Position numbers and translations under genes: made by a program | The notes under the pieces: generated by a model | The model's database searches: none | The model's input: the letters and a program-made list of their open reading frames with translations, nothing else | Told to the model about the DNA's origin: nothing | Shown here: one piece after another, positions 13,640 through 52,878 of the stretch | Position numbering within the stretch: the first letter of the stretch is position 1 | Layout: the number at the start of each line of letters is the position of its first letter | Origin: Gemmatimonadaceae bacterium | Lineage (GTDB): Bacteria > Gemmatimonadota > Gemmatimonadetes > Gemmatimonadales > Gemmatimonadaceae | DNA: 55,314 nucleotides | Assembly (NCBI GenBank): GCA_025453855.1 | Contig: JALOPO010000001.1 | Span: 1-55,314 of the forward strand | Direction: 5' to 3'

Positions 13640-13659
13640 GGCCGGGTATCGTGCGGGGG

Positions 13660-13690
13660 TTGACCTTGTAGTTGCTACAGGGTGCAAGAT
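13660..13690 (+). promoter_or_regulatory. PbrR/CadR-type MerR operator-promoter (divergent)
   Basis: TTGACC-(19 bp containing the dyad CTTGTAG-ttg-CTACAGG)-CAAGAT. It sits between the merR-family gene and the TonB receptor gene. Confidence 0.7.
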
Positions 13691-13696
13691 ACTGGC

Positions 13697-27115: not shown

Positions 27116-27306
27116 CGTCTGAGCAGTCGTTCAGGCATCTGCTCGTATCGTAGGCGCCAACCTCCTCGCTCGCCACCGTCGCGATGGCCGTGTTCCCCTC
27201 CCTCGACCGTTTCGACCGTGCCCGGGAATCCGTGCGCCGAGTCGCCGTGCGCGGAGTCGCGCGTACGGGTGGGGAGGCGCAGGGCTGCGCGCTGGAGGCG
27301 GGCACC

Positions 27307-37773: not shown

Positions 37774-38061
37774 TCACACCCGCCCGACCCCAAGCCACAC
37801 GGCCAGCCCGCCCAGCACGATCCAGCACGTCCAGAACAGCGCCACCGACCACCAGGGCAGTCGCACCCCCGCGCGTCGCTCGATGTGCCGGCGCGCGATC
37901 ATGCTCCACGCGTGGAGCACGATCCCGAGGATGGCGAGCCCCCACGCCACCGGCGCCAGCGCCTTGGCGAGGAGCACGCCGACGCCGGCGCCGGCCAGCG
38001 CCGCCCCGCCGCTCGAGGCCAGCTGGATCCGCTTCTCGAGTGCCACCTCATCCGAGTGCAT
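37774..38061 (-). CDS. Small membrane protein (95 aa, ~3 TM) overlapping the cusA stop
   Basis: Hydrophobic segments AALAGAGVGVLLAKALAPVAWGLAILGIVLHAW and WWSVALFWTCWIVLGGLAVWLGV. It overlaps cusA by 14 nt. Confidence 0.5.
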   Translation of the reverse strand: MHSDEVALEKRIQLASSGGAALAGAGVGVLLAKALAPVAWGLAILGIVLHAWSMIARRHIERRAGVRLPWWSVALFWTCWIVLGGLAVWLGVGRV

Positions 38062-41000
38062 GCGTCCCTCCCTCGAGGAGTGGTGTCGTACGGTCGGCCG
38101 ACCGTGCGCTGCGGAGCCCCCGCTCGCGGACCAGCGACCAGATCGCGGGCACCACGAGCAGCGTCAGCACGGTGCTCGAGACCATCCCGCCGATCATCGG
38201 TGCCGCGATGCGCTTCATGACGCTCGCGCCCGTGCCGGTGCTCCACAGGATGGGCAACAGGCCGATCATCGTCGAGGCCACCGTCATGAGCTTGGGGCGG
38301 ACGCGCTCCACGGCGCCCTCCATGGTCGCCTCGCGCAGCGCCGTGAGGCGATCCGGTGCGTCGCGGCGCGCCTCCCACGCCGATTCCAGGTACACGAGCA
38401 TGATCACGGAGGTCTCGGCGGCCACGCCGGCGAGCGCCAGGAAGCCGATGGTCACCGCGACCGACCACTGGTAGTCGAGCCACCAGAGGAACCAGATCCC
38501 GCCGACGAGCGTGAAGGGGATGCTGAGCATCACGATCAGCGTGTCGCCCACCCGGCGGAAGTTGAGATAGAGGAGCAGGAAGACGAGCGCCAGGGTCACG
38601 GGGACGACGACACGCATGGTCGCCTTCGCGCGCTCCATGTACTCGTACTGGCCGCTCCACGCCATCGTGTAGCCGGGTGGCAGCGCCATCGCGCCCGCCA
38701 CCATGCGCCGCGCCTCGGCCACGTAGCCGCCGATGTCGCTCGACGCGACGTCCACGAAGACCCACACCGTCGGCTGCGCGTCCTCGGTGCGGATCACCAT
38801 CGGCCCGGCCACCTGCCGGATGCGCGCGATCTGACCCAGCGGCACCTGTCCGGCGGCGGTGGCGGTGGCTGCGGTGCCGGGTGACGCGGCGTCGGTGCTC
38901 ATGCCGCCCATCCCGCCCGCGCCGGCGCCGCCGGCCGAGGGCGCGCTCCGATGCTGCTGCGGCACGAGCACGGCGGCGAGCCGTTCGGGCGTGTCGCGCA
39001 GCTCCTGCGGATAGCGGACCCGCACGCCGTAGCGTTCGCGTCCCTCGACCGTCTGCGTGATCGTCATCCCACCGATGGCGGTGGCGATCACGGTCTGCAC
39101 GTCGCCGACGTTGAGCCCGTGGCGCGCGGCCGCGGCGCGGTCGATGTCGATGTCGAGGTAGTAGCCGCTCACCGCCCGCTCGGCGAAGGCGCTGCGCGTG
39201 GCGGGGAGCATCCGCAGGTGCCCCTCGAGCTCCGTGCCGAGGCGCTCCAGGGTGGCGAGGTCGGGGCCGTAGAGCTTCACGCCGACCGGCGTGCGGATCC
39301 CGGTCGCGAGCATGTCGATGCGCCCCTTGATCGGCATCGTCCAGGCGTTGGTGACGCCCGGCATGCGCACGGCCGAGTCCATGGCGGCGACGAGCCGTTC
39401 GTACGTCATGCCGGGGCGCCAGCGCTCGCGCGGCTCGAGCATGATCGTCGTCTCGGCCATGTCGAGCCCCGCGGGATCGGTGGCGGTCGAGCCGCGGCCG
39501 GCCTTGCCGAAGACGCTCGCCACCTCGGGGAACGCGGCGAGGATCGAGTCCTGCTGCCGGAGCAGCTCGCGCGCGCGCGCGACGCCGATGCCGGGCATCG
39601 TCGTGGGCATGAACAGGATCGTCCCTTCCTCGAGCGGCGGCATGAACTCGCTGCCGATCCGCTGCCAGGGGATCCACGTCAGGACGAGCGCAGCGGCGGC
39701 GGTGCCGATCACCGGACCGCGATGCGCGAGCACCCAGCCGAGCACCGGGCGGTAGGCGCGGATCATGGCGCGGCTCAGCGGGTTGCGGCGCTCGGTGAAG
39801 ATGCGCCCCCGGACGAAGAGCATCATCAGCACCGGGACGAGCGTGACGCTCAGCAGGCTCGCGGCCGCCATCGCGAAGGTCTTCGTGAGCGCGAGCGGCG
39901 TGAAGAGGCGCCCCTCCTGCCCCTCGAGCGCGAAGACCGGGATGAACGAGACGGTGATGATCAGGAGCGAGTAGAAGAGCGATGGCCCGACCTCCTGGGC
40001 GGCGTCGAGCACGACCTGCCGGCGCTCCTGCGGGGTGAGGCTCGCGGTGTCGATGAACCGCGCTCCGGGGGCCGCCCGTCGCTCCAGGTGCTTGTGCATG
40101 TTCTCGACCATCACGATGGCGGCGTCGATCATCTCGCCGATGGCGATGGCGATGCCGCCGAGCGACATGATGTCGGCGCCGATGCCGAAGGCGCGCAGCG
40201 CGAGGAAGGCGATGAGGACGCTCACCGGGAGCGTGACCACCGCGACGAGCGCCGATCTCGCGTGCAGGAGGAAGACGATGCAGATCGCCGCGACGATCAG
40301 CGCCTCCTCGACGAGGGTCTCCCGGATGGTGTCGATGGAGTCGAGGATGAGCCCCGAGCGGTCGTAGACCGGGCGCACGACGACGCCCGGGGGGAGCCCC
40401 GGTGCGATCTCGGCGAGCCGCGTCCTGACGCGCTCGATGGTGGCGAGGGCGTTCTCGCCCGAGCGCATGACCACGATCCCGCCCACCGCGTCGCCGCGGC
40501 CGTCGAGATCCGCGATCCCGCGCCGCACCGCGGGGCCGACGCTCACGCGCCCGAGCTCCGCGACGCGGATCGGCGTCCCCGCCGCGGTGGTGCCGACGAC
40601 GATGCTCTCGATGTCGCCGACGCCCTGCAGGTAGCCGAGGCCGCGGACCATGTGCTCGCGCTCGGAGAGCTCGAGCACCATCGCCCCGACGTCGGCGTTC
40701 GCGTTCTGGATCGCGCTGATGACGCGCGTGATCGGGATCCCGTAGGCGAGGAGCTTCGCGGGATCGAGGTCGACCTGGTACTGCTTCTCGAAGCCGCCGA
40801 CCGTCGCCACCTCGGCCACGCCGGGGACGGCGGTGAGGGCGTAGCGGAGCGACCAGTCCTGCAGGCTGCGCAACTGCGCGAGGTCCAGGCGGCCGCTGGT
40901 GTCCTCGAGCACGTACTGGTAGACCCACCCCAGCCCCGTCGCATCGGGGCCGAGGACCGGACTGACCGACGCGGGGAGCTTTCCCTTGAGGCCGTTCAGG

Positions 41001-41338
41001 ACCTCGAGCACGCGCGAGCGCGCCCAGTAGAGGTCCGTGGCGTCGTCGAAGATCACGTACACGAACGAGACGCCGAAGAACGAGTAGCCGCGCACCGTGC
41101 GGGCCCCCGGCACCTTGAGCATCTCGGCCGCGATGGAATAGGTGACCTGGTCCTCGACGATGCGCGGCGCCTGCTCGCCGTAGTCGGCCTGCACGATCAC
41201 CTGCACGTCGGAGAGGTCGGGGAGCGCCTCGAGCGGCGTGTGCCGGATCGCCCACGTCCCGCCGAGCGCGAGCACGAGGGTGACGAGCAGCACGACGAGC
41301 GGGTTGCCGACCGACCAGGCGATGAGACGACGAAGCAT
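38048..41338 (-). CDS. cusA: Cu(I)/Ag(I) RND transporter, CusA family
   Basis: The N-terminus TPLEALPDLSDVQVIVQADYGEQAPRIVEDQVTY...GPDATGLGWVYQYVL parallels E. coli CusA. It has a Gly/Met-rich insertion GGAGAGGMGGMSTD. Confidence 0.9.
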   Translation of the reverse strand: MLRRLIAWSVGNPLVVLLVTLVLALGGTWAIRHTPLEALPDLSDVQVIVQADYGEQAPRIVEDQVTYSIAAEMLKVPGARTVRGYSFFGVSFVYVIFDDATDLYWARSRVLEVLNGLKGKLPASVSPVLGPDATGLGWVYQYVLEDTSGRLDLAQLRSLQDWSLRYALTAVPGVAEVATVGGFEKQYQVDLDPAKLLAYGIPITRVISAIQNANADVGAMVLELSEREHMVRGLGYLQGVGDIESIVVGTTAAGTPIRVAELGRVSVGPAVRRGIADLDGRGDAVGGIVVMRSGENALATIERVRTRLAEIAPGLPPGVVVRPVYDRSGLILDSIDTIRETLVEEALIVAAICIVFLLHARSALVAVVTLPVSVLIAFLALRAFGIGADIMSLGGIAIAIGEMIDAAIVMVENMHKHLERRAAPGARFIDTASLTPQERRQVVLDAAQEVGPSLFYSLLIITVSFIPVFALEGQEGRLFTPLALTKTFAMAAASLLSVTLVPVLMMLFVRGRIFTERRNPLSRAMIRAYRPVLGWVLAHRGPVIGTAAAALVLTWIPWQRIGSEFMPPLEEGTILFMPTTMPGIGVARARELLRQQDSILAAFPEVASVFGKAGRGSTATDPAGLDMAETTIMLEPRERWRPGMTYERLVAAMDSAVRMPGVTNAWTMPIKGRIDMLATGIRTPVGVKLYGPDLATLERLGTELEGHLRMLPATRSAFAERAVSGYYLDIDIDRAAAARHGLNVGDVQTVIATAIGGMTITQTVEGRERYGVRVRYPQELRDTPERLAAVLVPQQHRSAPSAGGAGAGGMGGMSTDAASPGTAATATAAGQVPLGQIARIRQVAGPMVIRTEDAQPTVWVFVDVASSDIGGYVAEARRMVAGAMALPPGYTMAWSGQYEYMERAKATMRVVVPVTLALVFLLLYLNFRRVGDTLIVMLSIPFTLVGGIWFLWWLDYQWSVAVTIGFLALAGVAAETSVIMLVYLESAWEARRDAPDRLTALREATMEGAVERVRPKLMTVASTMIGLLPILWSTGTGASVMKRIAAPMIGGMVSSTVLTLLVVPAIWSLVRERGLRSARSADRTTPLLEGGTHALG

Positions 41339-41341
41339 CGG

Positions 41342-42772
41342 TCACTCCGGCGTGGACGGGTGCACGTGCCCGCCTTGCGCGGGGGCGGGCATCGCGTGCC
41401 CCTCGTGCGGCGACGGAGTCGTCCGTGGGGCCGGCGTCGGCGTGCGGGTCCGTGGCGATGCCGGCATCGGCATGGCCATCGGCATCGACGGGTCCATCGG
41501 CATCCGTGCCGTGGTGCCGGGCCGCGCCGTGGCGGTGTCGCGGGCGGGTGGAACGGTCACCTCCATGCCGGGCATGTCGCCCATCCCGCCGAGGGCGGTG
41601 CCGAGGTTCGATTCGGCGTCGAGCAGGAAGGTGGCGGAGGCGACGACGGTATCGCCGGCGGCGAGGCCGCGCACGATCTCGATCCGGTCGCCGGCCGCGG
41701 CGCCCACCTCCACCTCGCGCGGCTCGAGCGTGCCGTTCGCGAGGCGGCGGAAGACGAGCGCGCGCTCGCCCGTGACGAGCACCGCGTTGCGCGGAACGGT
41801 GAGCCCCGGTGCGGCCGCGTCGGCGGCCCCGCGCAGGCGGAGCGTCGCGTACAGGCCGGGACGCAGGCGCCCGTCGGCGTTCGCGAGCGCCACGCGCACG
41901 CGTGCCGTGCGCGTCTCGGGCGAGAGCGTCGGGTAGACGTAGGCGATGCGCCCCCGCCACGCCTCGCCGGGCCACGCGTCGAACTCCGCGGTCGCGGGCT
42001 GGCCGGTGCGCACGGCGCGGAGGTCCTGCTCGTACACCTCGCCCTCGACCCACACGGTCGAGAGATCGGCGACGAGGAGCAGCGGCTCGCCGGCCATGAC
42101 GCGCTGACCGGTGGTGACGCGCTTCTCGGTGATCACGCCGCTCGCCGGTGAGCGGAGCGTCACGGTGCGCTGCACCTCGCCGGTGCGCTCGATGCGCGCG
42201 ATCTCGTCGGCGGGGACGTCCCAGTAGGCGAGGCGCCGCCGTGCGCCGGCGACGAGATCGTCGGCCCCGGCACGCGTGTCGGCGGTGCCGGCGGCGACGT
42301 CGCGGGCGAGCCGACGGGCGAGGAGGAGCTCCTCCTGCGCGGTGACGAGGGCGGGGGAGTAGAGGCGGAGCAGCGGCTCGCCGCGACGGATCGCGCGGCC
42401 GGTGAAGTCGGCGTGCAGCGTCTCCACCCATCCCTCGACCTTGAGCGAGACGGTCTGCACGCGCGTCTCGTCGACGACCACCTGCCCGACGGTGCGGATC
42501 TCGCGCACGAGCGGCGTGGCCTCGACGGCGGCGAAGGTGATGCCGATGCGGCGCGCCTGGTCGGGCGTGAGCTGCACGGGGCGGGGCCCGTCACGGGTGG
42601 CCGCTCCACTCATCGCGGCGTGGTCGTGCGCCGTCGCGGTGGGGGCGGGCGTCGCATCGCCGCGCGTGACGTACCACGCGATGCCTGCGGCGACCACGGG
42701 GAGGCCCAGCGACAGTGCGAGCCGGCGGACGCGGGCGCCGCGGCTCGGCGCGGGGGGAACGGCGGTGCTCAT
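41342..42772 (-). CDS. cusB: RND adaptor, CusB family, with Met/His-rich C-terminal tail
   Basis: The ATG overlaps the cusC stop (ATGA). Tail: GGMGDMPGMEV...MPMDPSMPMAMPMPASP...HEGHAMPAPAQGGHVHP. Confidence 0.85.
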   Translation of the reverse strand: MSTAVPPAPSRGARVRRLALSLGLPVVAAGIAWYVTRGDATPAPTATAHDHAAMSGAATRDGPRPVQLTPDQARRIGITFAAVEATPLVREIRTVGQVVVDETRVQTVSLKVEGWVETLHADFTGRAIRRGEPLLRLYSPALVTAQEELLLARRLARDVAAGTADTRAGADDLVAGARRRLAYWDVPADEIARIERTGEVQRTVTLRSPASGVITEKRVTTGQRVMAGEPLLLVADLSTVWVEGEVYEQDLRAVRTGQPATAEFDAWPGEAWRGRIAYVYPTLSPETRTARVRVALANADGRLRPGLYATLRLRGAADAAAPGLTVPRNAVLVTGERALVFRRLANGTLEPREVEVGAAAGDRIEIVRGLAAGDTVVASATFLLDAESNLGTALGGMGDMPGMEVTVPPARDTATARPGTTARMPMDPSMPMAMPMPASPRTRTPTPAPRTTPSPHEGHAMPAPAQGGHVHPSTPE

Positions 42773-44103
42773 CGCGGGACTCCGGCAGGCAGGGCAGGGG
42801 AGGTGAGCCACGGGCGACCGGTCAGCATCTCGAGCTCGGCCCAGGCGCGGCCCTCGGTCGCGTCGAGCGCGACGAGCTCGCGGCGATACCGCGTGGCGGT
42901 CATCCGGTTGTCGAGGACGGTCATGAAGTCGACGGCGCCGCTGCGATACGACGCGAGCGCGGAGGCGGCCGCGGCGTCGGCCTGCGGGAGCACCGTCGTG
43001 CGGTACAGCGCGCGCAGCCGGCGCGCGCTCGCGAGCATCGCGTGCACCTCGGCGAGTCGGCGGCGCGTGTCGGCGCGCATCATCGCGAGCTCGGCCTCGG
43101 CCATCTCGCGCATCGCCGACGCCTCGTCGCGCATGCGGAGCTGCCGCGTACGCGCGAACACGGGGAGCGTGGCGCCCACCATCAGGCTCCCCATCCGGTC
43201 GATGCCCCCGTCCATGCGCCGCTGCCCGTACTGCACACCGACGCGGAGGTCGGGCCAGAGCTCGCGGCGTGCGAGATCGGCGTTGGCATCCGCGGCCCGC
43301 ACGGCCGCGGCACCCGCAACGAGCATCGGTCGGGCCTCGAGCGCGGCGGCGAGCAGTGCGGACAGCGACGGCAGCGTGTCGGGGAACGGCGGCGGCGTGG
43401 CCGCGACTAGGAGCCCTTCCGGGAGGGTGTCGAGCGAGGCACCGAGGCGAGCGGCGGCCGCATCGGCCATCGCGGTCATGCGCACGACCTCCTCGTCCAT
43501 GCGGGCGATCTCGACCCGCGCGCGGAGCACGTCGCTCTGCCGGCCATCCCCGACGCGATACATCGCGGTGGCGACGCTCGCCGCATCCTCGAGCAGGCGA
43601 CGGGTCTCGCCCGCGAGCCGGGCCGCCTCCAGCGCCTCCCACCGGTCGAGATAGGCGACCGCCACGTCGGCCCGGACGGTGAGCACGACGTCGCGCGTCC
43701 GTGCCTCGGCGCTCGCGGCGCGTGACCGGGCCGCGGTCGACGCGGCGCCGAGCTTGCCCGGCAGCGGCACCATCTGCATCACCTGCAGCTGGGCCATGCC
43801 GAGCACGGGATCGGGGCGCAGGCCCGGTAGCGAGTAGTTCATGGCGCCGAGCTGCAGCTCGGGGTCCGGCGGCCGCGTGGCGGTGCCGACGCGCGCGACG
43901 GCTGCGGTCGCGAAGGCCGCGGCGGCACGCACGCGCGGGTCGCGCACGGCCGCCAGCTGCTGCAGCGCCGGCAGCGTGAGCGTGTCGCGAAGGAACGGGG
44001 CGGGCTGCGCCCCGAGTGACGGGAGGGCGACGCTCGCGGCGAGGCACAGGGCGACTGCCCGGAAGCCACGCGGCGAGACGACCGCGCCGGAAGTGGATGG
44101 CAC
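42769..44103 (-). CDS. cusC: Outer-membrane factor, CusC/TolC family (start approximate)
   Basis: OEP repeats. Signal-like RGFRAVALCLAASVALPSLGAQ. The GTG at 44103 has GAGAGAGG upstream. Confidence 0.8.
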   Translation of the reverse strand: MPSTSGAVVSPRGFRAVALCLAASVALPSLGAQPAPFLRDTLTLPALQQLAAVRDPRVRAAAAFATAAVARVGTATRPPDPELQLGAMNYSLPGLRPDPVLGMAQLQVMQMVPLPGKLGAASTAARSRAASAEARTRDVVLTVRADVAVAYLDRWEALEAARLAGETRRLLEDAASVATAMYRVGDGRQSDVLRARVEIARMDEEVVRMTAMADAAAARLGASLDTLPEGLLVAATPPPFPDTLPSLSALLAAALEARPMLVAGAAAVRAADANADLARRELWPDLRVGVQYGQRRMDGGIDRMGSLMVGATLPVFARTRQLRMRDEASAMREMAEAELAMMRADTRRRLAEVHAMLASARRLRALYRTTVLPQADAAAASALASYRSGAVDFMTVLDNRMTATRYRRELVALDATEGRAWAELEMLTGRPWLTSPALPAGVPR

Positions 44104-44189
44104 GACGGAGAGCCTCTCTCGATGTGACGTGCCGTCGCCGACGTGCGACGGCGCGAGCACCGCACCGCGGCGCGGTGCGGGGACGCGTC

Positions 44190-44570
44190 TCAGCCGCGCG
44201 GCGGCGGATCGGCGCGTTCGAGGAGGGGCGTGGCCGGGGGGCGCAGGCCGTGCGCGTCCGCGAGCGACGACGGACGCGGTGCGGACGCGTCCACGGCACA
44301 TCGCACGACCTCGGCGGCCGCAAGGACGCTGCACCCGCCGCTCATCGGGCAACCGCACGATCCGTAGTCCTGCATCGGCGGCGCGTGGGGTCCCGGCGCA
44401 TGCGTGTCACTCGGCCCGTGAACGCCCCCCACCGCCGCGGGCACGCCCGTGGCGTCCAGCGATGCGTGCGTCGCGGTGCCCGACGCCGCGCCGCAATGCG
44501 CCGACGGCGCCGACCATGCCATGGCGGCGACGGCGAGCAGGAGCAGCGCGAGGAGGCGACGGAACGCCAC
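44190..44570 (-). CDS. Small secreted Cys/His-rich protein leading the cus operon (start uncertain)
   Basis: Signal-like FRRLLALLLLAVAAMAWSAPSAH, then CGAASGTATH..HGPSDTHAPGPHAPPMQDYGSCGCPMSGGC. Confidence 0.45.
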   Translation of the reverse strand: MAFRRLLALLLLAVAAMAWSAPSAHCGAASGTATHASLDATGVPAAVGGVHGPSDTHAPGPHAPPMQDYGSCGCPMSGGCSVLAAAEVVRCAVDASAPRPSSLADAHGLRPPATPLLERADPPPRG

Positions 44571-44667
44571 GGGGGGCAGGGGCGGAGACTGGGGTCCGGC
44601 GCGAGCGCGCCGGCGGGCCTGCGGTGCTGCGCATCCGGCGAGGCGGCCCGTGGCGCCCGGTGCGCGT

Positions 44668-44686
44668 GCTTTACGAACGATAAAGC
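44668..44686. promoter_or_regulatory. A/T-rich dyad GCTTTACGAACGATAAAGC in the cus/blaI divergent region
   Basis: 6-bp arms GCTTTA/TAAAGC. 15/18 identical to the reverse complement of 46648-46667. Confidence 0.55.
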
Positions 44687-44725
44687 GCCCGGTAGTTTCC
44701 GCAACGCACCCCCCCACGCCGAGCC

Positions 44726-45217
44726 ATGAGCCCCGTTCGCAAGTCGACGCCCCACGGGTGTGAGCCGGCCCGGCCGCCTCACCTGCAGGACACGATCCGC
44801 CTCTCCGCCGACGGCCTCGCGAAGGTTCTCGGCGACCTCGAGGCGCGGGTGCTCGAGGCCGTCTGGGCGCTGGGCACGCCGGCGCCGGCGCGCGCGGTGC
44901 ACGACGTCGTGGTGCGGGAGCATCCCGTGGCGCCGCTCACGGTGACGACCGTGCTCAACAAGCTCGTGGCCAAGCAGCTCCTCGAGCGGCGGAAGGTGCA
45001 CGACCTCCTGCACTACAGCGCGCGGATGACGCGGGACGCCTTCATGGCGCACGTCAGTCGCCGGGTGGCCGAGGGGATCCTGGCGTTCGAGCCCGCGCGC
45101 GTGGCGGCGTCGGTGATCGACGTGATGGCCGAACGTGACCCGGCGCAGCTCGAGGAACTGGAGCGCCTCATCCAGGCGGCCCGGCGGCAGCGGGACGCCG
45201 GAGCCGGGACGCCGTGA
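44726..45217 (+). CDS. BlaI/MecI/CopY-family winged-helix repressor (no C-terminal Cys motif)
   Basis: LGDLEARVLEAVWALGTPAPARAVHDVVVREHPVAPLTVTTVLNKLVAKQLLERR is the Penicillinase_R fold pattern. Confidence 0.75.
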   Translation: MSPVRKSTPHGCEPARPPHLQDTIRLSADGLAKVLGDLEARVLEAVWALGTPAPARAVHDVVVREHPVAPLTVTTVLNKLVAKQLLERRKVHDLLHYSARMTRDAFMAHVSRRVAEGILAFEPARVAASVIDVMAERDPAQLEELERLIQAARRQRDAGAGTP

Positions 45218-46281
45218 TCCCCGACGCCGACGCGCCGGCGCCTGCGCTTCGCATCCGGGAGCAGCGGCGTCGCCGCCTGCTGCTGCTCGCGCTCGCGACG
45301 GCGCTGCTCGCGAGCCTGACGCCCATCGTCGGCAAGCACCTCGTCGGCCTCGCCCATCAGCCGCTCACGGGGATCGACCACATCGGCGCACTCTGCCTCG
45401 TGGCGTTGCACCTGATCGTCGCCCCGGTGCACGAGGGCCTGCACCTGCTGGTCGGTGCCGGTGTCGTGTACGCCATCGCGGACCGCGCGCACGCCTGGTG
45501 GCGCGCCCGACGCGTGCTCGCGCCGCTGCCGCAGCAGCCGCCCATGCCGGGCGACCCGTTCGCGCTCGCGTGCGAGACGGCAGGGGTGCCGTCACGCCAC
45601 GTCTGCATCGTCGACGGCCTCCCGGTGCCCGCCTTCACGGCCGGATGGCTCAGGCCCGTGATCTACGTGGCCCGCGCCCTGGGCGACGGACCGGCCGCCT
45701 TGCCGCGCGAGCAGCTGGCGGCCGTGCTGGCGCACGAGGGGTCGCATCGCACGCGGCGCGATCCGCTGCGCCTCTTCGCGCTGCGGGCGCTCTCGAAGGC
45801 GCTCTTCTGGCTCCCCGGCCTAAGCGCGCTCACGGACGACGTGGCGGACGAGGCGGAGATCCGCGCCGACGACGCCGCGATCCGGGTCGTCGACCGCCTC
45901 TCGCTCGCCTCGGCGCTCGTCGCGCTCGGGCGATGGGACACCGCACGGGCCGGCGTGCCGGCGATGACGATGGGCGTCGGCTTCGTGCGTCCCGACCTGC
46001 TCGACCGTCGTGTGCGGCGGCTCGCGGGCGCCGACGCCGTGCTCGGCTCGCGGCTCTCGCGTGGGTCGGTCGCCTCGGCGGCCTGCCTCGTGGCGCTCGC
46101 GTGGACCTCGGGGCTGGTGGACGTGCACGGCCTCGCGCACCCGGCGACCGCCTCCGCGGTGGAGGCGCACTGCCACCACCTGCACGGGTCGCCGTGGGGG
46201 CACCTGTTCTGCCGGGCGGGCGTAGCCGGACCGGTGCTTCCGGCGACCGGCACCGACTGCCCCCACCGGTTCCACCCATGA
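45214..46281 (+). CDS. BlaR1/MecR1-like M56 membrane metalloprotease with a Cys/His-rich C-terminal tail
   Basis: The GTG overlaps the blaI-like stop (GTGA). TM helices, HEXXH as LAHEGSH, and the tail HCHHLHGSPWGHLFC...CPHRFHP. Confidence 0.7.
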   Translation: MIPDADAPAPALRIREQRRRRLLLLALATALLASLTPIVGKHLVGLAHQPLTGIDHIGALCLVALHLIVAPVHEGLHLLVGAGVVYAIADRAHAWWRARRVLAPLPQQPPMPGDPFALACETAGVPSRHVCIVDGLPVPAFTAGWLRPVIYVARALGDGPAALPREQLAAVLAHEGSHRTRRDPLRLFALRALSKALFWLPGLSALTDDVADEAEIRADDAAIRVVDRLSLASALVALGRWDTARAGVPAMTMGVGFVRPDLLDRRVRRLAGADAVLGSRLSRGSVASAACLVALAWTSGLVDVHGLAHPATASAVEAHCHHLHGSPWGHLFCRAGVAGPVLPATGTDCPHRFHP

Positions 46282-46318
46282 GACGGCCTTGGCCTCGGTG
46301 TGGGCCGCCAGTTGTGCC

Positions 46319-46366
46319 GTATACCCCCGGGGGGTACATTCGCCGGAGATACCCGGTGGGGGTATC
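46319..46366. promoter_or_regulatory. Two tandem CsoR-type GC-tract palindromes upstream of copZ
   Basis: TACCCCC-GGGGGGTA (46322-46336) and GATACCC-ggtg-GGGGTATC (46348-46366). Confidence 0.5.
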
Positions 46367-46387
46367 CGTCCTCCAGCTGGAGCCCTG

Positions 46388-46612
46388 ATGTCGTACTACG
46401 ATCTGACCATCGCCGGCATGACCTGCGCGCACTGCGTGCGTGGCGTCTCCGCGGCCCTCGCCCGTGTGCCCGGCCTCGTGGTCGAGCACGTGAGTGTGGG
46501 GCATGCCCGGGTTCGGGCATCGACGACGCTCGCCGTCGATTCGATCCGCGAGGCCGTCGAGGCGGCCGGCTACACCCTGACCGCCGTCGAGGCGGGTGGC
46601 GTCGCCACCTGA
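46388..46612 (+). CDS. copZ: CopZ-like heavy-metal-associated chaperone
   Basis: MSYYDLTIAGMTCAHCVRGV... has the canonical GMTCxxC ferredoxin-like domain. 74 aa. Confidence 0.85.
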   Translation: MSYYDLTIAGMTCAHCVRGVSAALARVPGLVVEHVSVGHARVRASTTLAVDSIREAVEAAGYTLTAVEAGGVAT

Positions 46613-46647
46613 ACGGCACACCATTCGCGCGAGTCGTCGCGCGCCTC

Positions 46648-46667
46648 GGCTTTATCCACCGTAAAGA
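46648..46667. promoter_or_regulatory. Second copy of the A/T-rich dyad (GGCTTTATCCACCGTAAAGA)
   Basis: Its reverse complement TCTTTACGGTGGATAAAGCC matches GCTTTACGAACGATAAAGCG at 44668. It lies 50 nt upstream of the gene at 46718. Confidence 0.55.
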
Positions 46668-46717
46668 CACCGGCTGCCGTCCCGGGCGGCCGGCACGAGC
46701 ACCCCGACTCCACGTCC

Positions 46718-47554
46718 ATGCCCCACCAGTCCCGTCGTCTCGCCCTGGTCGCTGCCGCCCTGCTCTCCGCGAGGGCGTCGCTCGGCGCGCAGACCGACTA
46801 CTTCAACACCGACGCCGGCCGCCCGCTGACCATCGAGGACGCGTACGCGCTCGAGCGACGGTCCATCGAGATCCAGGGCGCCCCCCTGCGCCTCGAACGC
46901 ATCCGCGGCGGACAGTACCGCTGGGGGATCGAACCCGAGCTGTCCGTCGGCCTCTTCCCGCGCACGCAGATCGAGATCGGTGTCCCACTGGTGTTCGTCG
47001 ACGACCCGTCGCGCGGCGACCGGCGCGCGGGTGCGGCGGGCGTCGACATGTCGGTGCTCTACAACCTCAACCGCGAGACGAGTCTCCCGGCGTTCGCCGT
47101 CGGCGTCGGGGCGCTGCTCCCCGCGGGCTCGCTCGGGCCGCGTGATCCGTACGGCAACGCCAAGGTGGTCATGACCCGCACCTTCCCCGCGTTCCGCGTG
47201 CACGCGAACGCGCAGGCCACGTTCGGCCCGCGCCTGTCGCTGCCGGCTGGGTCGCCCGATCCCGTGGGCGGCAACACGCTCGAGCTCTCGCGCTGGCTCG
47301 CGGGCGTCGCGGTCGACCGCACGCTGCCGCTCCGCTCGATGCTGCTCGCGGCCGAGGTCTTCGCCCGCGCGCCGCTCGTGCGCGGGCAGCCGCTCGAGTG
47401 GAACGCGGGCGTCGGCACGCGCTGGCAAGCCAACGTGCGCTGGGCGATGGACGCCGGCGTCGGTCGTCACCTCACCGGCGACGACCGCGGCTGGTACCTG
47501 ACGCTCGGCGGCGCCTACGCGATGGGCTGGCCGTGGCGCCCCGCGCGACGCTGA
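46718..47554 (+). CDS. Outer-membrane beta-barrel protein (MetA-pathway/transporter-like)
   Basis: Signal peptide LALVAAALLSARASLGAQ. Alternating beta-strand pattern with an aromatic-rich C-terminal strand. Confidence 0.55.
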   Translation: MPHQSRRLALVAAALLSARASLGAQTDYFNTDAGRPLTIEDAYALERRSIEIQGAPLRLERIRGGQYRWGIEPELSVGLFPRTQIEIGVPLVFVDDPSRGDRRAGAAGVDMSVLYNLNRETSLPAFAVGVGALLPAGSLGPRDPYGNAKVVMTRTFPAFRVHANAQATFGPRLSLPAGSPDPVGGNTLELSRWLAGVAVDRTLPLRSMLLAAEVFARAPLVRGQPLEWNAGVGTRWQANVRWAMDAGVGRHLTGDDRGWYLTLGGAYAMGWPWRPARR

Positions 47555-47592
47555 GACGCCGTCCCCTTCCTTCGACTTCCGAGAGACGTTCC

Positions 47593-49218
47593 ATGCGCCG
47601 CATCCGTCGACTGTCCCACCAGCTCGTCGCCGCGCTCGTCGTGGCGGTGCTGCCGACCCGCGCCGCGACGGCGCAGTGGTCGCAGGTCTACGAGCAGTTC
47701 TACCTGCAGGCCCCGCACAACTGGACCTTCCGCACCGAATACTCGCATGCGGATCGCCTCTTCAACGCCTTCGACTACGGCCACGCGATCCTCTACGAGA
47801 CGCTGTGGCGGAAGCCCGACGCGCCCGCGTCGCGGCTCGAGGAGAAGGAGTACGCGTTCCTCGTCAACCGCGTGCTGGTGCGCCCGCCGCGCAACCCGCT
47901 CGAGGAGGCGGCCATCGAGCCCATGTATGCCCGGCTCGCCCCCGAGGCGAAGATGATGTTCGACTGGGCGCACGTGCTGCACCGCCAGCTCTACGACGTG
48001 CTCGCCGACGAGCGGCTCGACCGGGCGGCGAAGGACCGCGAGGTGCAGCGGATCATCGCGTACTACAAGTCGCGCCCGGACCTGGCCTTCAGCTCGCGGC
48101 CGAAGAGCATGGCGCTGATGCAGGAGCAGCCGTACTCGCTCGCCTTCCGGAAGCGGTACCCGAAGTTCAATGGCCTCATCTGGGGCTACCACTGGCTGCA
48201 GATCGGCCTCTACGAGCCGCTCGTGACGGGGACGACGCGCGAGGCCCGGCAGGCCGGGGTCCGCGCGACGGTGTCGCGCTTCTTCCAGATGCTGCAGGAC
48301 GCGCCGACGCACATGCCGCACCAGATGCCGATGACGCCGGCGGTCGCCCCCGCGTTCGCGGCGCGGTACCCGGAGGCGGGGATCATCTTCGACAACCTGC
48401 ACAGCATGCACGACGTGGTGAGCGACATCCTCACCAACCCGGCGGTGCCGCGCGACCGGAAGCGCGCGGAGATCCTGCGGGCGGCGCGGCTCTTCAAGGA
48501 CGACACGTCGTACGTGATGGGGTCGACCGAGGCGTGGGTCCGCATGTCGCAGCACATGGGGGTCGAGAACATGGGCGGGCCGGCGGTGGGCTTCCTGCCG
48601 TCGATGCCGACGCCCACGGTCACCTACGGCGCCGTGATGACGCACGACGACCGCACGGGGGAGATGACGGGGTTCAAGTACGGGTCGGCGACGGGCGGCG
48701 ATCATGCGGCGCACGGGGCGCCCGTATCGGGCGGTGCCGGCGCCGATGCGCACGCGGGCCACGGGGCAGCGGCGCCGGTTCCGGCACCGGCCGGCGGGCA
48801 CGAGGGACATGCGATGCCGGCGGCGCCGAGCGCGCCGACCGCTCCCGCGGCGGCCGCAGCGGCCGCGTTCCAGCTCCGCATGCTCGGTGACTCGCTCATC
48901 CGCGCGCGGGTGATGGCCGACACGGCGATGCACCGGCTGGCCATGGAGGCGATGCAGGCGATGCCGCCGGAGCAGCGGGCGGAGGTGATGCAGCGCATGC
49001 ACGGGGCCGGGCACGATCACGGCGCGATGCACGGCGCCGCCGGTGCCGCGACCTTTACGCCACCGTCGCGCCGCGGCGCCACCCCGCGCCCGCGTCGCAC
49101 CCCGAAGGCCGCGGCCCCCGGCGGCACGACGCCGCGGGCCGGCGTGTCGAAGCCGGCGGTCCCGACGCCGGCACCCACCCGTGACCCGCACGCCGGTCAC
49201 GGGACGCACCGGCCCTGA
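47593..49218 (+). CDS. Secreted 541-aa protein of unknown function with four His-containing helix repeats and a His/Met-rich tail
   Basis: Signal peptide LVAALVVAVLPTRAATAQ. Repeats FDYGHAILYETL, FDWAHVLHRQLYDVL, WGYHWLQIGLYEPL and FDNLHSMHDVVSDIL. Tail segments GDHAAHG..DAHAGHG..GGHEGHAMP..MHGAGHDHGAMHG. Confidence 0.6.
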   Translation: MRRIRRLSHQLVAALVVAVLPTRAATAQWSQVYEQFYLQAPHNWTFRTEYSHADRLFNAFDYGHAILYETLWRKPDAPASRLEEKEYAFLVNRVLVRPPRNPLEEAAIEPMYARLAPEAKMMFDWAHVLHRQLYDVLADERLDRAAKDREVQRIIAYYKSRPDLAFSSRPKSMALMQEQPYSLAFRKRYPKFNGLIWGYHWLQIGLYEPLVTGTTREARQAGVRATVSRFFQMLQDAPTHMPHQMPMTPAVAPAFAARYPEAGIIFDNLHSMHDVVSDILTNPAVPRDRKRAEILRAARLFKDDTSYVMGSTEAWVRMSQHMGVENMGGPAVGFLPSMPTPTVTYGAVMTHDDRTGEMTGFKYGSATGGDHAAHGAPVSGGAGADAHAGHGAAAPVPAPAGGHEGHAMPAAPSAPTAPAAAAAAAFQLRMLGDSLIRARVMADTAMHRLAMEAMQAMPPEQRAEVMQRMHGAGHDHGAMHGAAGAATFTPPSRRGATPRPRRTPKAAAPGGTTPRAGVSKPAVPTPAPTRDPHAGHGTHRP

Positions 49219-50600
49219 TGCGTCGCCGTCGCACGTCGCTCGCCGTCGCGCTGCTCGTCGCGGCGGCGTCGCGCCTCGAGGCGCACGACCACCTGCGTGC
49301 GTCGACGCCGCGGGAAGGCGAGACGGTCGCGACGGCGCCGACGGCGATCCGCCTGCGCTTCGCGTCTCGTGTCGATCCCACGAGTGCGCACGTGACGCTC
49401 GCCGACGGGGCCGGGCAGGCGTTCGTGCTTCCCGTCGCGCCGGCGCATCCCGACACCGTCGCCGTCCTCGTGGCGACCGTCCCGGCGGGCGCGGCGCCCG
49501 GGGCATGGCGTGTGGCGTGGCGCATCGCGGGGCGTGACGGCCATCCGGTGACGGGTACCCTCCGCATCACGGTGCGGGCGAGCGCACCGGTCGACACGCC
49601 GCGGTGGTCGGCGAGGCCGACGCCGAACGCTGCACCCGCCGACGAGGACGCGTCGCCGGCCTTCGACGCCGGGGCGCCGCTCTACGTGCTCGTGCGCTGG
49701 GGCAGCTACCTCGCCCTGCTCCCGCTCGTCGGCGCCTTCGCGCTGCTGCTCGTCGTCGTGCCACGACTCGCGACCGATGACCGCGAAGCGATGGCCACGA
49801 ACGTCGCACGCGTCGGTCGCGTCGCCGCCGTCGCGCTCCTCGGTGTCGCCGCCGCACGCCTCGTCGCGCAGTCCGTGTCGCTGCACGGTGCGGCAGGTGC
49901 GCTCGACCCGGCGAGCATCGGGAGCGTGCTGCGGTACACGACGTGGGGATGGGCGTGGATCGGACAGGTGGCGGCCGTCGCGCTCGCACTGCTCGTGCTG
50001 CGGCGCCGTCCTCCCACGGGCGCCGTCACACGGGTCGGCGGCATCGTCGTCGCGTCGGCGCTCGGCGTCGCGAGTGCGGCCTCCGGCCATGCCGTGGCGA
50101 GCGAGGCGGGGACGGCGCTGCTCGTGACGGCGGATGCACTCCACACCCTCGGGGCAGGTGCGTGGCTCGGGGCACTCGGTGTACTGCTGGTGGTGGCCGT
50201 GGCACCGGCGCGCCATGACGCTGCCGGCGTCGCCGCCGTCGTCCGTGCGTTCGCCCCTCTCGCGCTCGGGGGCGCCGCGGCACTGGTCGTCAGCGGGGGC
50301 GTGCTCGCGTGGCATCACGTGGGCTCGCTGGCGGCGCTCACCGGTTCCACGTACGGCTGGCTGCTGCTCGGCAAGCTCGGAGTGCTCACCGGGATCGCCG
50401 CGCTCGGAGCCATCAACTGGCGTCGCCTCGGGCCGGCGCTGCCGTCGGCGCCCGCGGTGCGCCTCCTGCGGCGCAGCGTGCGTGGCGAACTCGCCCTGGG
50501 GGCGCTGCTGCTGCTCGTGACCGCCGTGCTCGTCGCCACGCCCACGCCACGCGAAGTCTCCGCAGACGACGCGGCCGCCATCGGCATCGCACCACCGTGA
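49218..50600 (+). CDS. CopC-CopD fusion protein (YcnJ-like)
   Basis: The N-terminal CopC fold begins AHDHLRASTPREGETV and ends ..WRIAGRDGHPVTGTLRITV. About 8 TM CopD helices follow. Confidence 0.8.
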   Translation: MRRRRTSLAVALLVAAASRLEAHDHLRASTPREGETVATAPTAIRLRFASRVDPTSAHVTLADGAGQAFVLPVAPAHPDTVAVLVATVPAGAAPGAWRVAWRIAGRDGHPVTGTLRITVRASAPVDTPRWSARPTPNAAPADEDASPAFDAGAPLYVLVRWGSYLALLPLVGAFALLLVVVPRLATDDREAMATNVARVGRVAAVALLGVAAARLVAQSVSLHGAAGALDPASIGSVLRYTTWGWAWIGQVAAVALALLVLRRRPPTGAVTRVGGIVVASALGVASAASGHAVASEAGTALLVTADALHTLGAGAWLGALGVLLVVAVAPARHDAAGVAAVVRAFAPLALGGAAALVVSGGVLAWHHVGSLAALTGSTYGWLLLGKLGVLTGIAALGAINWRRLGPALPSAPAVRLLRRSVRGELALGALLLLVTAVLVATPTPREVSADDAAAIGIAPP

Positions 50601-50640
50601 CGTTCGACCGCACCCGCCACGCCGCACTCGAGGACGGACG

Positions 50641-52878
50641 ATGACGCTGCCACACGACCATGGGTCGCACGCGGGACACGGACCGGGACACGAGCACGCG
50701 CGCCACGCAGCGCCGCCCGCACCGGCGCAGGGTGCCGACCAGCCGCACGCCGCGCACGACGGCTCGTCGGCGGAGACGAGCGCGAGCCTGCACCACGGCG
50801 CGCACGGGGCGCGCGATGCCGGGCGCGCCGGCGCACACGCGAGTGCCGCCGCCGGCGGGATGGCGGCCCACGCCGACGCACACGCCGACCATGGCGCGCA
50901 CGCCGGGCACAGCGTCGCGATGTTCCGGCGACTCTTCGTGATCTCCCTCGTGCTCACCGTGCCGACGCTCGTCTGGGGGCACATGCTGCCGACGGCACTC
51001 GGCGTCCACCCGCCGCGCGTCCCGGGCGCGGCGTGGCTCCCGGCGGTCTTCGGCACCGCCACCTTCGTCGTGGGCGGGCGACCGTTCCTGGGTGGTGCGG
51101 TGCGCGAGCTGCGCGCGCGGCTCCCCGGCATGATGACGCTGATCGCGCTCGCCATCGGCGTGGCGTTCGTGTTCAGCATCGCCGTGACGCTCGGCTTCCC
51201 CGGCATGCCGCTCTGGGAGGAGCTCGCCACGCTGGTGACGATCATGCTGCTCGGGCACTGGCTGGAGATGCGGTCGATCTCGCAGGCGCAGGGGGCGCTC
51301 GGCGAGCTGGCGCGCCTCCTCCCCGACACGGCGGTGCGGGTGACGGGAGGCGGGGGGCTGGAACGTGCCGAGACGGTGCCCATCGCCGCGCTGCGGGTCG
51401 GCGACGTCGTGCTGGTCCGGCCGGGGGCGAGCGTGCCCGCCGACGGGACGGTGCGCAGCGGCACGAGCACCGTCGACGAGGCGATGATCACCGGCGAATC
51501 GGCGCCGGTCGACAAGGCGCCCGGCACGCCGGTGATCGCCGGCACGATCAACGGCACGGGGGCGCTCCGGGTCGTGGTCACGGGAACGGGCGACGCAACG
51601 GCGCTCGCCGGGATCATGCGCCTCGTCGCCGATGCGCAGGCGTCGCGCTCGCGCGCGCAGGCACTCGCGGACCGGGCGGCGTACTGGCTCACCTTCATCG
51701 CGCTCGGCGCCGGCGTCGCGACACTCGTCGCGTGGCTCGCGGCCGGGGCGTCGCCGGCGTACGCCATCGAGCGCTTCGTCACCACGCTCGTCATCGCCTG
51801 TCCGCACGCGCTCGGGCTCGCGATCCCCCTCGTGCTCGCGATCTCGACGACGCTCGGCGCGCGCGCCGGGCTGCTCGTCCGCGACCGGCGTGGCCTCGAG
51901 GAGGCGCGGTCACTGACGGCGGTCGTATTCGACAAGACGGGCACGCTGACGCTGGGCGAGCACCGCGTGGTCGCGATGCGCACCGACGGCTCGCTCGACG
52001 ACGACGCGGCCCTCGCGCTCGCCGCCGGTGTGGAGCGGGACGCCGAGCATCCGGTGGCCCGCGCCATCGTGCGCAGCGCCGAGGCGCGCGGGGTGGCCCT
52101 TGCATCGTCGTCGGCGTTCGAGGCGATCCCGGGGCGTGGCGTGCGCGCCCAGGTGGGTGGGCGGCGTCTGGCCGGCGGTGGCCCCAACCTGCTCGCGGCG
52201 TTGGGCGTCACGCCGACGCCGCCGTTCGTCGCGTTCGCGCAGGAGGCGGCGGCGCGGGGGCAGGGCGTCGTGTATCTGGTGGACGAGTCGGACACCCCGA
52301 CGGTGCGGGCGGCGTTCGCGGTCGCCGACGCCGTGCGCCCGGAGTCGGCCGAGGCGGTGCGCGCACTGCACGCCGAGGGGATCGAGGTGGTGATGCTCAC
52401 GGGCGACGCGACCGCGGTCGCCGAAGGCGTCGCGCGCGACCTCGGCATCGACACCGTGCTCGCCCAGGTGCTGCCCGAGGAGAAGGCGGCGCACATCGCC
52501 GCACTGCAGCGGCAGGGGAAGCGCGTCGCCATGGTGGGTGACGGCGTGAACGACGCCCCGGCGCTGGTGCAGGCGGACGTGGGCGTGGCCATCGGCGCGG
52601 GGACAGGGGTGGCCGTGGAGGCCGGGGACGTGGTGCTCGTGCGCAGCGATCCGCGCGACGTGCCCCGCATGATCCGCCTGAGCCGCGCGTCGTACCGCAA
52701 GATGATCCAGAACCTCTGGTGGGCGACCGGCTACAACGTCGTCGCCATCCCGCTGGCCGCCGGAGTGCTCGCCCCCTGGGGCGTCGTGCTCACGCCGGCG
52801 ATGGGGGCGGTGCTCATGTCGGTGAGCACCGTGGTCGTCGCCATCAACGCCCAGCTCCTGCGCCGCCTGCGGCTGTGA
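50641..52878 (+). CDS. copB: CopB-type (P1B-3) copper ATPase with His-rich N-terminus
   Basis: CPH motif in LVIACPHALGLAIP, plus DKTGTLT and GDGVNDAPAL. The N-terminus reads HDHGSHAGHGPGHEHARH...HADAHADHGAHAGH. Confidence 0.9.
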   Translation: MTLPHDHGSHAGHGPGHEHARHAAPPAPAQGADQPHAAHDGSSAETSASLHHGAHGARDAGRAGAHASAAAGGMAAHADAHADHGAHAGHSVAMFRRLFVISLVLTVPTLVWGHMLPTALGVHPPRVPGAAWLPAVFGTATFVVGGRPFLGGAVRELRARLPGMMTLIALAIGVAFVFSIAVTLGFPGMPLWEELATLVTIMLLGHWLEMRSISQAQGALGELARLLPDTAVRVTGGGGLERAETVPIAALRVGDVVLVRPGASVPADGTVRSGTSTVDEAMITGESAPVDKAPGTPVIAGTINGTGALRVVVTGTGDATALAGIMRLVADAQASRSRAQALADRAAYWLTFIALGAGVATLVAWLAAGASPAYAIERFVTTLVIACPHALGLAIPLVLAISTTLGARAGLLVRDRRGLEEARSLTAVVFDKTGTLTLGEHRVVAMRTDGSLDDDAALALAAGVERDAEHPVARAIVRSAEARGVALASSSAFEAIPGRGVRAQVGGRRLAGGGPNLLAALGVTPTPPFVAFAQEAAARGQGVVYLVDESDTPTVRAAFAVADAVRPESAEAVRALHAEGIEVVMLTGDATAVAEGVARDLGIDTVLAQVLPEEKAAHIAALQRQGKRVAMVGDGVNDAPALVQADVGVAIGAGTGVAVEAGDVVLVRSDPRDVPRMIRLSRASYRKMIQNLWWATGYNVVAIPLAAGVLAPWGVVLTPAMGAVLMSVSTVVVAINAQLLRRLRL

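Follow-up and report, generated by a model that had tools for sequence, protein, structure and literature searches.

The stretch of DNA considered here, hereafter the window, comprises 55,314 nucleotides from a Gemmatimonadaceae bacterium (positions 1 to 55,314 of the forward strand of contig JALOPO010000001.1, assembly GCA_025453855.1), and between positions 44,726 and 46,281 it carries the gene of a BlaI-like repressor followed by that of a membrane zinc metalloprotease. This pair is probably a PetRP-like proteolytic switch that has come to serve copper resistance; it is marked by a distinctive, conserved Cys/His module predicted to face the periplasm, has a candidate operator, and is related to sister subfamilies in other phyla. 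The precedent is PetR/PetP (Slr0240/Slr0241) of Synechocystis sp. PCC 6803 (Garcia-Canas et al. 2021; bioRxiv 10.1101/2020.07.31.226407; PMC7896320), in which PetR, a member of the BlaI/CopY family without the Cys site of CopY, is degraded only when copper and PetP are both present, in vivo as well as in extracts (PMC7896320). The gene pair, the folds of its products, their topology, the conservation of their residues, the association with copper genes and the motif of the operator are results of computation, and the binding of the metal, its identity, the activation of the protease, and the cleavage of the repressor with its site are proposed by analogy with PetRP and BlaR1.

Repressor, protease and the conserved outer module

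The repressor matches Pfam PF03965 Penicillinase_R with 69 bits (E 5.8e-19, for a cutoff of 22.6), whereas its score for NCBIfam CopY_TcrY (TIGR02698) is 26.7 bits for an equivalog cutoff of 121.95, which places it outside the CopY subfamily. It contains a single Cys, C12, with no CxC and no equivalent of the CxCx4CxC metal site of CopY, and the repressors of 68 related loci likewise lack CxC, most of them having 0-1 Cys. The profile of the repressor family finds the structures 2g9w, 1sd6, 1okr, 1sd4, 2k4b and 1p6r, the nearest being BlaI of Mycobacterium tuberculosis (Mtb; 2g9w, 6e-13), followed by MecI (2e-9) and BlaI (6e-9). The repressor family also carries a conserved extension on the N-terminal side of the winged helix, some 20 residues long (LQDTxRLSAxGLAKVLGDLE; residues ~21-40, 44786-44845), and the alignment with Mtb BlaI begins only at LGDLE.

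The GTG start codon of the protease gene overlaps the TGA stop codon of the repressor gene in the tetranucleotide GTGA (45214-45217), and both open reading frames (ORFs) have the composition of genuine genes, given that the window has a GC content of 72.7%, that its genuine genes exceed 0.85 in GC content at third codon positions (GC3), and that the values here are ~0.91 for the repressor and ~0.90 for the protease. Public data also contain a 99%-identical protein. The protease exceeds the cutoff of Pfam Peptidase_M48 (27 bits, over 20.3) and bears the zinc-binding motif HEGSH, followed by a third-ligand region, DEAEIRADD (E215, D219); the region aligns with HEYAH...E(V)EAD of BlaR1. The profile of the protease family matches HtpX (9.6e-5) and BlaR1 (5e-3) across HExxH...E-x3-D. 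In an alignment of 88 homologs with 45-81% identity to the protease, H174, E175, E215 and D219 are invariant, and so is H178. No transpeptidase or penicillin-binding protein (PBP) domain was found, PF00905 gave no match, and only 51 residues follow the last transmembrane (TM) helix. The idea that the protease merely performs quality control, as a generic enzyme of the HtpX type, was also considered, but the strict pairing with a repressor and the conserved outer module speak against it.

An AlphaFold2 model built on the same 88 homologs (mean predicted local distance difference test, pLDDT, 84; predicted TM-score, pTM, 0.83) has a helix at residues 10-43, a short beta-containing loop at 44-61, a long helix at 62-102, a globular domain at 115-270, a helix at 283-304, and a tail of 51 residues with two short helices. 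When this model was compared with known structures by Foldseek, ZMPSTE24 was found at E 4.6e-4 and BlaR1 (8exs/8exq/8exr) at E ~8e-3, with a TM-score of 0.49, normalised to the length of the target, for 8exr_B, a construct of BlaR1 containing the TM helices and the protease. The predicted topology has the Arg-rich N-terminus inside, TM1 at ~aa 22-42, a loop at aa 43-61, TM2 at ~aa 62-88, the protease domain at aa 89-282, TM3 at aa 283-304, and the tail at aa 305-355. Over the 15 residues that flank each helix in the alignment, the mean number of Lys plus Arg is 4.3 before TM1, 0.55 after TM1, 4.55 after TM2, 3.05 before TM3, and 0.39 after TM3. Given the positive-inside rule, this distribution assigns the N-terminus and the protease domain to the cytoplasm, and the loop and the tail to the periplasm, the side on which BlaR1 has its sensor and on which the copper ligands proposed for PetP were placed (PMC7896320).

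The final 37 residues of the protease include 3 Cys and 7 His. Across the 88 homologs, H305, C320 and C333 are fully conserved (88/88 each), C349, H330 and P350 are found in 87/88 and H351 in 86/88, followed by H319 (81/88) and H322 (79/88), and the regular expression HCxH-x7-HLFC-x~15-DCPH is matched by 112/121 sequences. The first loop is conserved to the same degree, with D55, H56 and C61 within aa 43-61, which has no Met, and H42 and H66 flanking it, so that these five residues are found in the loop and at the outward ends of the two helices that it joins, TM1 and TM2, on the same side of the membrane as H305 and the tail. Because the ligands of the loop are as conserved as those of the tail and face the same side, the candidate sensor is a composite of loop and tail, and probably not the tail alone. 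Two further His, H73 and H77 (45430-45444), are invariant or nearly so and lie on one face of TM2 at about the middle of the membrane, with H66 seven residues before H73; they could relay metal within the membrane or make a contact in the packing of helices.

The original prediction, made from the sequence alone, had described a translationally coupled BlaI/BlaR1-type pair, a Penicillinase_R repressor without the metal site of CopY, and a protease with HEGSH, a Cys/His-rich end and no PBP domain, and each of these descriptions is borne out. It had also named a tail that is not conserved in homologs as grounds for giving up the idea of a sensor, and because the tail is strongly conserved, this objection falls. 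The proposal that metal on the tail leads to proteolytic derepression is strengthened by a conserved tail that is predicted to be periplasmic, by the copper linkage and by the operator described below, and needs to be widened insofar as the loop is probably part of the sensor.

Copper genes, candidate operator and predicted regulon

The setting of the pair in a copper/silver locus, as it had been predicted, was confirmed by Pfam, which identifies two OEP-CusB-CusA sets, two P-type ATPases, an HMA chaperone, a CopC-CopD fusion and a DUF4198 protein in the window. One of the two sets ends next to the pair on the minus strand, and on the 3' side of the pair the order is HMA chaperone, two genes without a family, CopC-CopD fusion, P-type ATPase and DUF4198. 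The linkage extends well beyond the window. A search of 5.8 billion proteins with the protease returned more than 1,100 matches, of which the named ones are all from Gemmatimonadota (Gemmatimonadaceae, Gemmatimonas, Roseisolibacter, Longimicrobium), and a scan for loci with one genome per species gave 80 loci, again all from Gemmatimonadota. One homolog, P0028, is encoded by Roseisolibacter agri, which can be cultured. Among the long loci (those of at least 12 kb, 43 from the scan and 44 with the inclusion of L002), which were searched by tblastn with the proteins of the window, a BlaI-like gene adjoins the protease gene in 44/44, and the neighbours include CopC-CopD in 29, a P1B ATPase in 26, a multicopper oxidase in 24-25, and CusA/CusB in 13. 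A recognised copper gene lies within 10 kb of the pair in 38/43 long loci, in varied gene orders; for example, a Gemmatimonas genome has OEP, multicopper oxidase, BlaI and M56, then CopCD, DUF4198, CopC and CusBA.

The two genes are close together in related loci as well, with overlaps of 8 or 4 nt or gaps of 1-4 nt (L002, L083, L084, L085, L086). In three cases, two separate copies of the BlaI/M56 pair were found on different contigs of a single metagenome-assembled genome (MAG; L023/L057, L034/L054, L019/L059), and paralogous sensors within one genome seem to be common.

The candidate operator is a palindrome with the consensus CTTTAY-N5-RTAAAG. One copy, CTTTACGAACGATAAAG, is the sole AT-rich palindrome in the interval that separates the repressor gene from the divergent cus operon, and the other, CTTTATCCACCGTAAAG, precedes the next operon downstream. 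The pattern CTTTA-N7-TAAAG is present in exactly two copies in the 55-kb window, where 0 are expected, and no third copy of the operator was found in the window even when 3 mismatches were allowed. In related loci, CTTTAC-N5-GTAAAG with up to 3 mismatches occurs in 50/72 regions upstream of the BlaI-like gene, compared with 26/720 control windows. With at most 1 mismatch, there are 55 sites in the 1.03 Mb of these loci, for an estimated ~0.2 expected from base composition, and they are located upstream of BlaI (24), CopCD (4), multicopper oxidase (3), DUF4198 (3), and homologs of the gene that begins at 46718 (3), with none of the 55 inside any recognised gene. Sites equivalent to operator 2 precede the homologs of the 46718 gene in L033, L037 and L049. 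The placement of the operator, in the window and in related loci, therefore suggests that the repressor most likely regulates its own gene and controls cop genes.

The two exported proteins encoded after operator 2 match no Pfam or NCBIfam family, and their genes occur together with the pair in 17/44 long loci; they are likely new copper-handling proteins. Operator 1 is so placed that it may also serve the divergent cus operon. At the head of that operon, a small minus-strand ORF is backed only by its GC3 (0.83-0.90) and by a start resembling a signal peptide, FRRLLALLLLAVAAMAWSAPSAHC, and it contains a His/Cys-rich segment, HAPGPHAPPMQDYGSCGCPMSGGC; it gave no match in Pfam or NCBIfam and no homolog in the 80 related loci. 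Two other ORFs in the window also fall outside the Pfam and NCBIfam families.

The HMA chaperone seems to answer to a regulator other than the pair. Tandem palindromes, ATACCC-N5-GGGTAT, lie at 46321-46337 and 46349-46365, between the stop codon of the protease and the start of the chaperone gene (46388); they are the only two copies in the window, for 0.24 expected, and the same palindrome is found directly upstream of HMA genes in L022, L030, L049 and L063. These palindromes resemble CsoR-type operators, but no CsoR gene was found in the window by tblastn with an Mtb CsoR query, so that the regulator of the chaperone, which has its own palindromes, would be encoded elsewhere. An RNA element in the 46282-46400 spacer is unlikely because its folding z-score is 0.35, and a scan of 44350-46800 for consensus promoters and terminators found none.

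Other regulators are also present, namely an ArsR-family gene that adjoins the first cus cluster and two adjacent MerR-family genes, so that several independent sensors seem to govern the island. Upstream of the island, a transposase fragment and a helix-turn-helix (HTH) protein hint at present or past mobility of the island. A tblastn search of the plasmids in PLSDB with the protease returned no match.

Table 1. Coordinates of the pair, its motifs and the other features of the window
Feature	Position	Strand	Length	Remarks
BlaI/MecI/CopY-family winged-helix repressor	44726..45217	+	163 aa	Pfam Penicillinase_R
M48/M56 membrane zinc metalloprotease, BlaR/PetP-like	45214..46281	+	355 aa	
Outer-face ligand cluster H42, D55, H56, C61, H66	45337..45411	+	aa 42-66	in and around loop 1; each at least 99% conserved in the 88-homolog alignment
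HEGSH zinc-binding/catalytic motif	45733..45747	+	residues 174-178	H174, E175, H178
Periplasmic Cys/His tail (predicted)	46126..46278	+	aa 305-355	H305 ... H319-C320-x-H322 ... H330-L-F-C333 ... D-C349-P-H351
Predicted operator 1, CTTTACGAACGATAAAG	44669..44685			41 nt upstream of repressor start; divergent region facing the minus-strand cus operon
Predicted operator 2, CTTTATCCACCGTAAAG	46650..46666			52 nt upstream of next operon (start 46718)
Predicted regulated operon	46718..52878	+		membership assigned from operator 2 only
Exported protein without family	46718-47554	+	278 aa	follows operator 2
Exported protein without family	47593-49218	+	541 aa	His/Met-rich C-terminal region
CopC-CopD fusion	49185-50600	+		Pfam CopC/CopD
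P-type ATPase	50521-52878	+		Pfam E1-E2 ATPase
Divergent, possibly co-regulated cus operon	38048..44591	-		Pfam OEP, HlyD_D23, ACR_tran
Small His/Cys-rich exported ORF	~44190-44591	-	~133 aa	upstream of OEP-CusB-CusA
OEP	42769 to ~44130	-		divergent operon
CusB-like	41342-42766	-		divergent operon
CusA-like RND	38048-41341	-		divergent operon
OEP-CusB-CusA set and P1B ATPase	27.9-37.4 kb			Pfam
Second CusA-CusB-OEP set	38.0-44.1 kb	-		end adjoins the repressor/protease pair; Pfam
ArsR-family HTH gene	26630-27130	-		adjoins first cus cluster
Two adjacent MerR-family genes	12454-13137 and 13163-13756	-		MerR-DNA-bind domain
HTH (excisionase/Xre-like) protein	22672-23595	-		upstream of metal island
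DDE transposase fragment	21005-21616	+		upstream of metal island

Sister subfamilies, proposed mechanism and rival explanations

A profile search with the protease in 1.84 billion cluster representatives returned 117 clusters at E <=1e-30 and ~4,900 at <=1e-10. The near representatives retain the tail motif, and the distant ones (~300-320 aa) have other short tails that are also rich in Cys/His or in Met. In the P0207 group, the tail is DCPHAAMHDASHNHQHQ, with an odd number of Cys, and the locus has the order HMA, BlaI, M56, further genes and CopCD, with a multicopper oxidase alongside. In the P0265 subfamily, in which the names given by NCBI are those of Deltaproteobacteria or Thermodesulfobacteriota MAGs, the tail reads C(S/T)TxHCxxH-x5-8-C(K/R)xHC and has an end rich in His, and the loop contains two additional Cys. 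The pair of this subfamily heads an operon of BlaI, M56, a small unknown gene, OEP, a CusB-like gene and a resistance-nodulation-division (RND) pump in 3/3 contexts examined, and these pumps are of the Cus/Czc efflux type. A small gene thus lies between M56 and OEP in this subfamily, and the window too has a small ORF before OEP. The promoters of the subfamily contain TTCTAC-N5-GT(A/C)GAA exactly between TTGACA and TATTAT/TATACT, a placement that is typical of a repressor site, and the core TAC-N5-GTA geometry is common to the operators of this subfamily and of Gemmatimonadota, in addition to resembling the GAC-N5-GTC of PetR.

Across several phyla (Gemmatimonadota, Deltaproteobacteria/Thermodesulfobacteriota, and others), BlaR-like proteases with short, interchangeable outer modules rich in Cys, His and Met may make up, together with BlaI-like repressors, a widespread class of extracytoplasmic metal sensors that has so far escaped recognition, in which the irreversible cleavage of the repressor would switch on copper and heavy-metal efflux operons, the chemistry of the tail would set the specificity for the metal, and PetRP would be one specialised offshoot. 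We regard this generalisation as having a little less than an even chance of holding, and if it is true, the class would parallel the two-component and extracytoplasmic function (ECF) systems.

For the window itself, the mechanism would operate as follows. When no metal is present, the winged-helix repressor would bind CTTTAY-N5-RTAAAG in its own promoter, which faces the divergent cusCBA-type operon, and before the downstream operon. The protease would be a membrane zinc enzyme of three helices with its catalytic domain toward the cytoplasm, and its first loop and C-terminal tail would jointly offer about a dozen invariant His, Cys and Asp to the periplasm. The arrival of periplasmic copper, or possibly silver, on this loop-plus-tail module would reposition the membrane helices and activate the protease, which would then cut the repressor, probably in the AAS(F/L/V)VDVLAE helix that aligns with the cleavage site of MecI and BlaI. 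The loss of the repressor would result in derepression of the cop genes linked to the operator, and probably of the cus genes too. The cleavage site of MecI and BlaI is the N-F bond (N101-F102) in the C-terminal dimerisation helix, and in the profile of the repressor family the segment SLVLNFVEK of MecI aligns with the best-conserved C-terminal stretch, AVAAS(F/L/V)VDVLAE, which is compatible with cleavage of the repressor in this region. Taken as a whole, the reading of a PetRP-type BlaI/BlaR-family pair that controls copper defence through metal-triggered cleavage of the repressor is, in our judgement, somewhat more probable than its negation.

Several observations weigh against it. The invariant periplasmic Cys are four, and such an even number might reflect nothing more than two structural disulfides, and Met and His are commoner than Cys in periplasmic Cu(I) sites. 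The position that matches the N-F of MecI is Ser-Phe/Leu/Val and is not conserved as N-F. The score of the protease for Pfam Peptidase_M56 (PF05569) is 16.3 bits, under the cutoff of 31, with a precomputed PF05569 match in many of its homologs, its link to BlaR1 at the level of sequence is weak (E 5e-3), and its model has three TM helices, long and hydrophobic, where BlaR1 and PetP have four. The scan of the window did not find the operator at the first cus cluster nor at the HMA gene, and the ArsR-family and the two MerR-family regulators could govern some of the same genes.

The least improbable of the rival explanations, which we consider unlikely, is that the pair does regulate copper genes by proteolysis, but that the loop and the tail form a structural knot held by disulfides or by fixed Zn, or a thiol redox switch. 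The signal would then be indirect, in the form of disulfide or envelope stress caused by copper, or of metal that is bound by H73/H77 or received from another protein. Invariant periplasmic Cys are even in number, 4 and 6, in two subfamilies, the invariant H73 and H77 sit within TM2, and the tail has short helices only, with moderate pLDDT (56-87). The His positions, on the other hand, are conserved as well as the Cys positions, and the P0207 group has its odd number of Cys. The unrelated tails of the sister subfamilies are, moreover, all enriched in Cys, His and Met, which are ligands of soft metals, and because they share this enrichment while differing in sequence, selection for ligands fits better than a fixed fold.

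It is improbable that the signal is not a metal at all, but a perturbation of the envelope or the membrane, or an organic compound, with the position in a copper island due to co-transfer or to regulation of a general stress module. Most M56 proteins have short uncharacterised C-termini and signals that are unknown (PMC13492132), and the window shows a sign of mobility in its DDE transposase fragment, but this reading would have to account for a copper link that persists across varied gene orders in 38/43 long loci and recurs in a second phylum-level group, as well as for an operator directly before CopCD, multicopper oxidase and DUF4198 genes. A slightly smaller probability still is given to a repressor that senses cytoplasmic metal by itself, in the manner of CopY, with a protease that merely clears it later or has an HtpX-like housekeeping role. 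The weak similarity to CopY_TcrY, the fact that the best Pfam match of the protease is M48/HtpX-like, and the conserved His 59, 66 and 96 of the repressor point in this direction; nevertheless, the repressors of related loci have no Cys motif, two of the three His (H59 and H96) are also His in the aligned Mtb BlaI, where H66 is not, and this reading would not explain why the repressor gene is strictly adjacent to, and translationally coupled with, that of a protease whose outer module is invariant and rich in ligands.

If the metal-triggered reading is true, the family of the window carries PetRP-like logic into metal resistance in a poorly studied soil phylum. The control of copper resistance in bacteria is known to occur through CueR, CsoR, CopY, CusRS/CopRS and ECF sigma factors, and a proteolytic copper switch of the BlaI/BlaR type has been shown once only, in PetRP, for the swap of a photosynthetic protein. 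The candidate ligand set (H42, D55, H56, C61, H66, H305, H319, C320, H322, H330, C333, C349, H351), the candidate operator CTTTAC-N5-GTAAAG, and the predicted regulon with its two conserved family-less proteins make the question of how a BlaR-type protease senses metal directly testable, and the family could also yield compact parts for copper-responsive biosensors.

Comparison with known systems

The signalling logic had at first been thought undescribed for copper, a view that PetR/PetP, already published, overturns, so that the new part is the link to copper resistance and efflux; in literature searches, no paper on a BlaI/BlaR-type regulator of copper resistance was found, PetRP and the reviews that treat it being all that appeared. 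The stop codon of petR overlaps the start codon of the gene for PetP, an M48/M56 membrane protease that has no beta-lactam sensor (PMC7896320). Both systems thus combine a BlaI-like repressor free of the CopY site with an overlapping gene for such a protease, and both have operators of the form half-site-N5-half-site, GAC-N5-GTC in PetR (PMC7896320) and TAC-N5-GTA in the pair of the window. The ligand-bearing outer loop also corresponds to the extracellular loop proposed as the copper site of PetP, for which the authors could only suggest two Met, M53 and M58 (PMC7896320); a 2026 review lists the localisation of PetP as unresolved.

The differences, insofar as PetP can be compared by its published description, lie in the targets and in the sensor. 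PetRP, which controls plastocyanin, acts only on petE, petJ and two small genes, and the genes of copper homeostasis are not driven by it (2023 review, PMC10141476), whereas the pair of the window is located among cop/cus resistance genes, which it apparently controls. PetP stops right after its last TM helix, whereas the protease of the window continues with the 51-residue Cys/His tail. The two Met proposed for PetP lie in the TM2-TM3 loop, whereas the loop of the window protease has His, Cys and Asp and no Met, and PetP has 4 predicted TM helices instead of 3 and belongs to a different phylum. According to the same 2023 review, the role of BlaR homologs in heterotrophs is still to be elucidated (PMC10141476).

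The original prediction had also presented the Cys/His tail as a replacement for a beta-lactam sensor. The protease indeed has no PBP domain, but such absence is the rule among M56 proteins, given that a transpeptidase domain is found in only ~6% of them and that the commonest architecture is M56 with a short domainless C-terminus (2026 survey, PMC13492132). For example, the mycobacterial BlaI/BlaR (Rv1846c/Rv1845c) and the CenIR of C. difficile are also BlaIR-family pairs with a protease lacking the transpeptidase domain, but their signals are unknown or tied to energy metabolism or the cell envelope (PMC13492132), and no metal context or Cys/His module has been reported for them.

BlaI/BlaR1 and MecI/MecR1 of S. 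aureus (8exp, 8exq, 8exr, 8exs, 8ext, 1sd4, 1okr) share with the pair of the window the fold of the repressor, the membrane HExxH...E zinc protease, the repressor gene in the upstream position, a sensing element (presumed in the window) that lies outside the membrane beyond the last TM helix, and the TAC...GTA operator core. On the other hand, the penicillin-binding sensor of BlaR1 and MecR1 is missing from the window protease, for which the likely signal is a metal and not a beta-lactam, and BlaR1 has four TM helices with the N-terminus outside, in contrast to three with the N-terminus predicted inside. As the host of the window is diderm, unlike S. aureus, the signal would be sensed in the periplasm. 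CopY (Enterococcus hirae, Streptococcus pneumoniae) belongs to the same repressor family and regulates copper export genes; it binds Cu(I)/Zn(II) through a C-terminal CxCx4CxC and needs no protease, whereas this motif is missing in the repressor of the window and its relatives.

Finally, CnrYXH (Cupriavidus metallidurans) and CusRS/CopRS are functional analogues that also sense periplasmic metal and pass the signal through the inner membrane, so that an RND metal-efflux operon is turned on, by means of an anti-sigma factor and an ECF sigma factor in the former and a histidine kinase and a response regulator in the latter, with a reversible output. The machinery is wholly different from that of the pair in the window, in which the repressor would instead be irreversibly cleaved.

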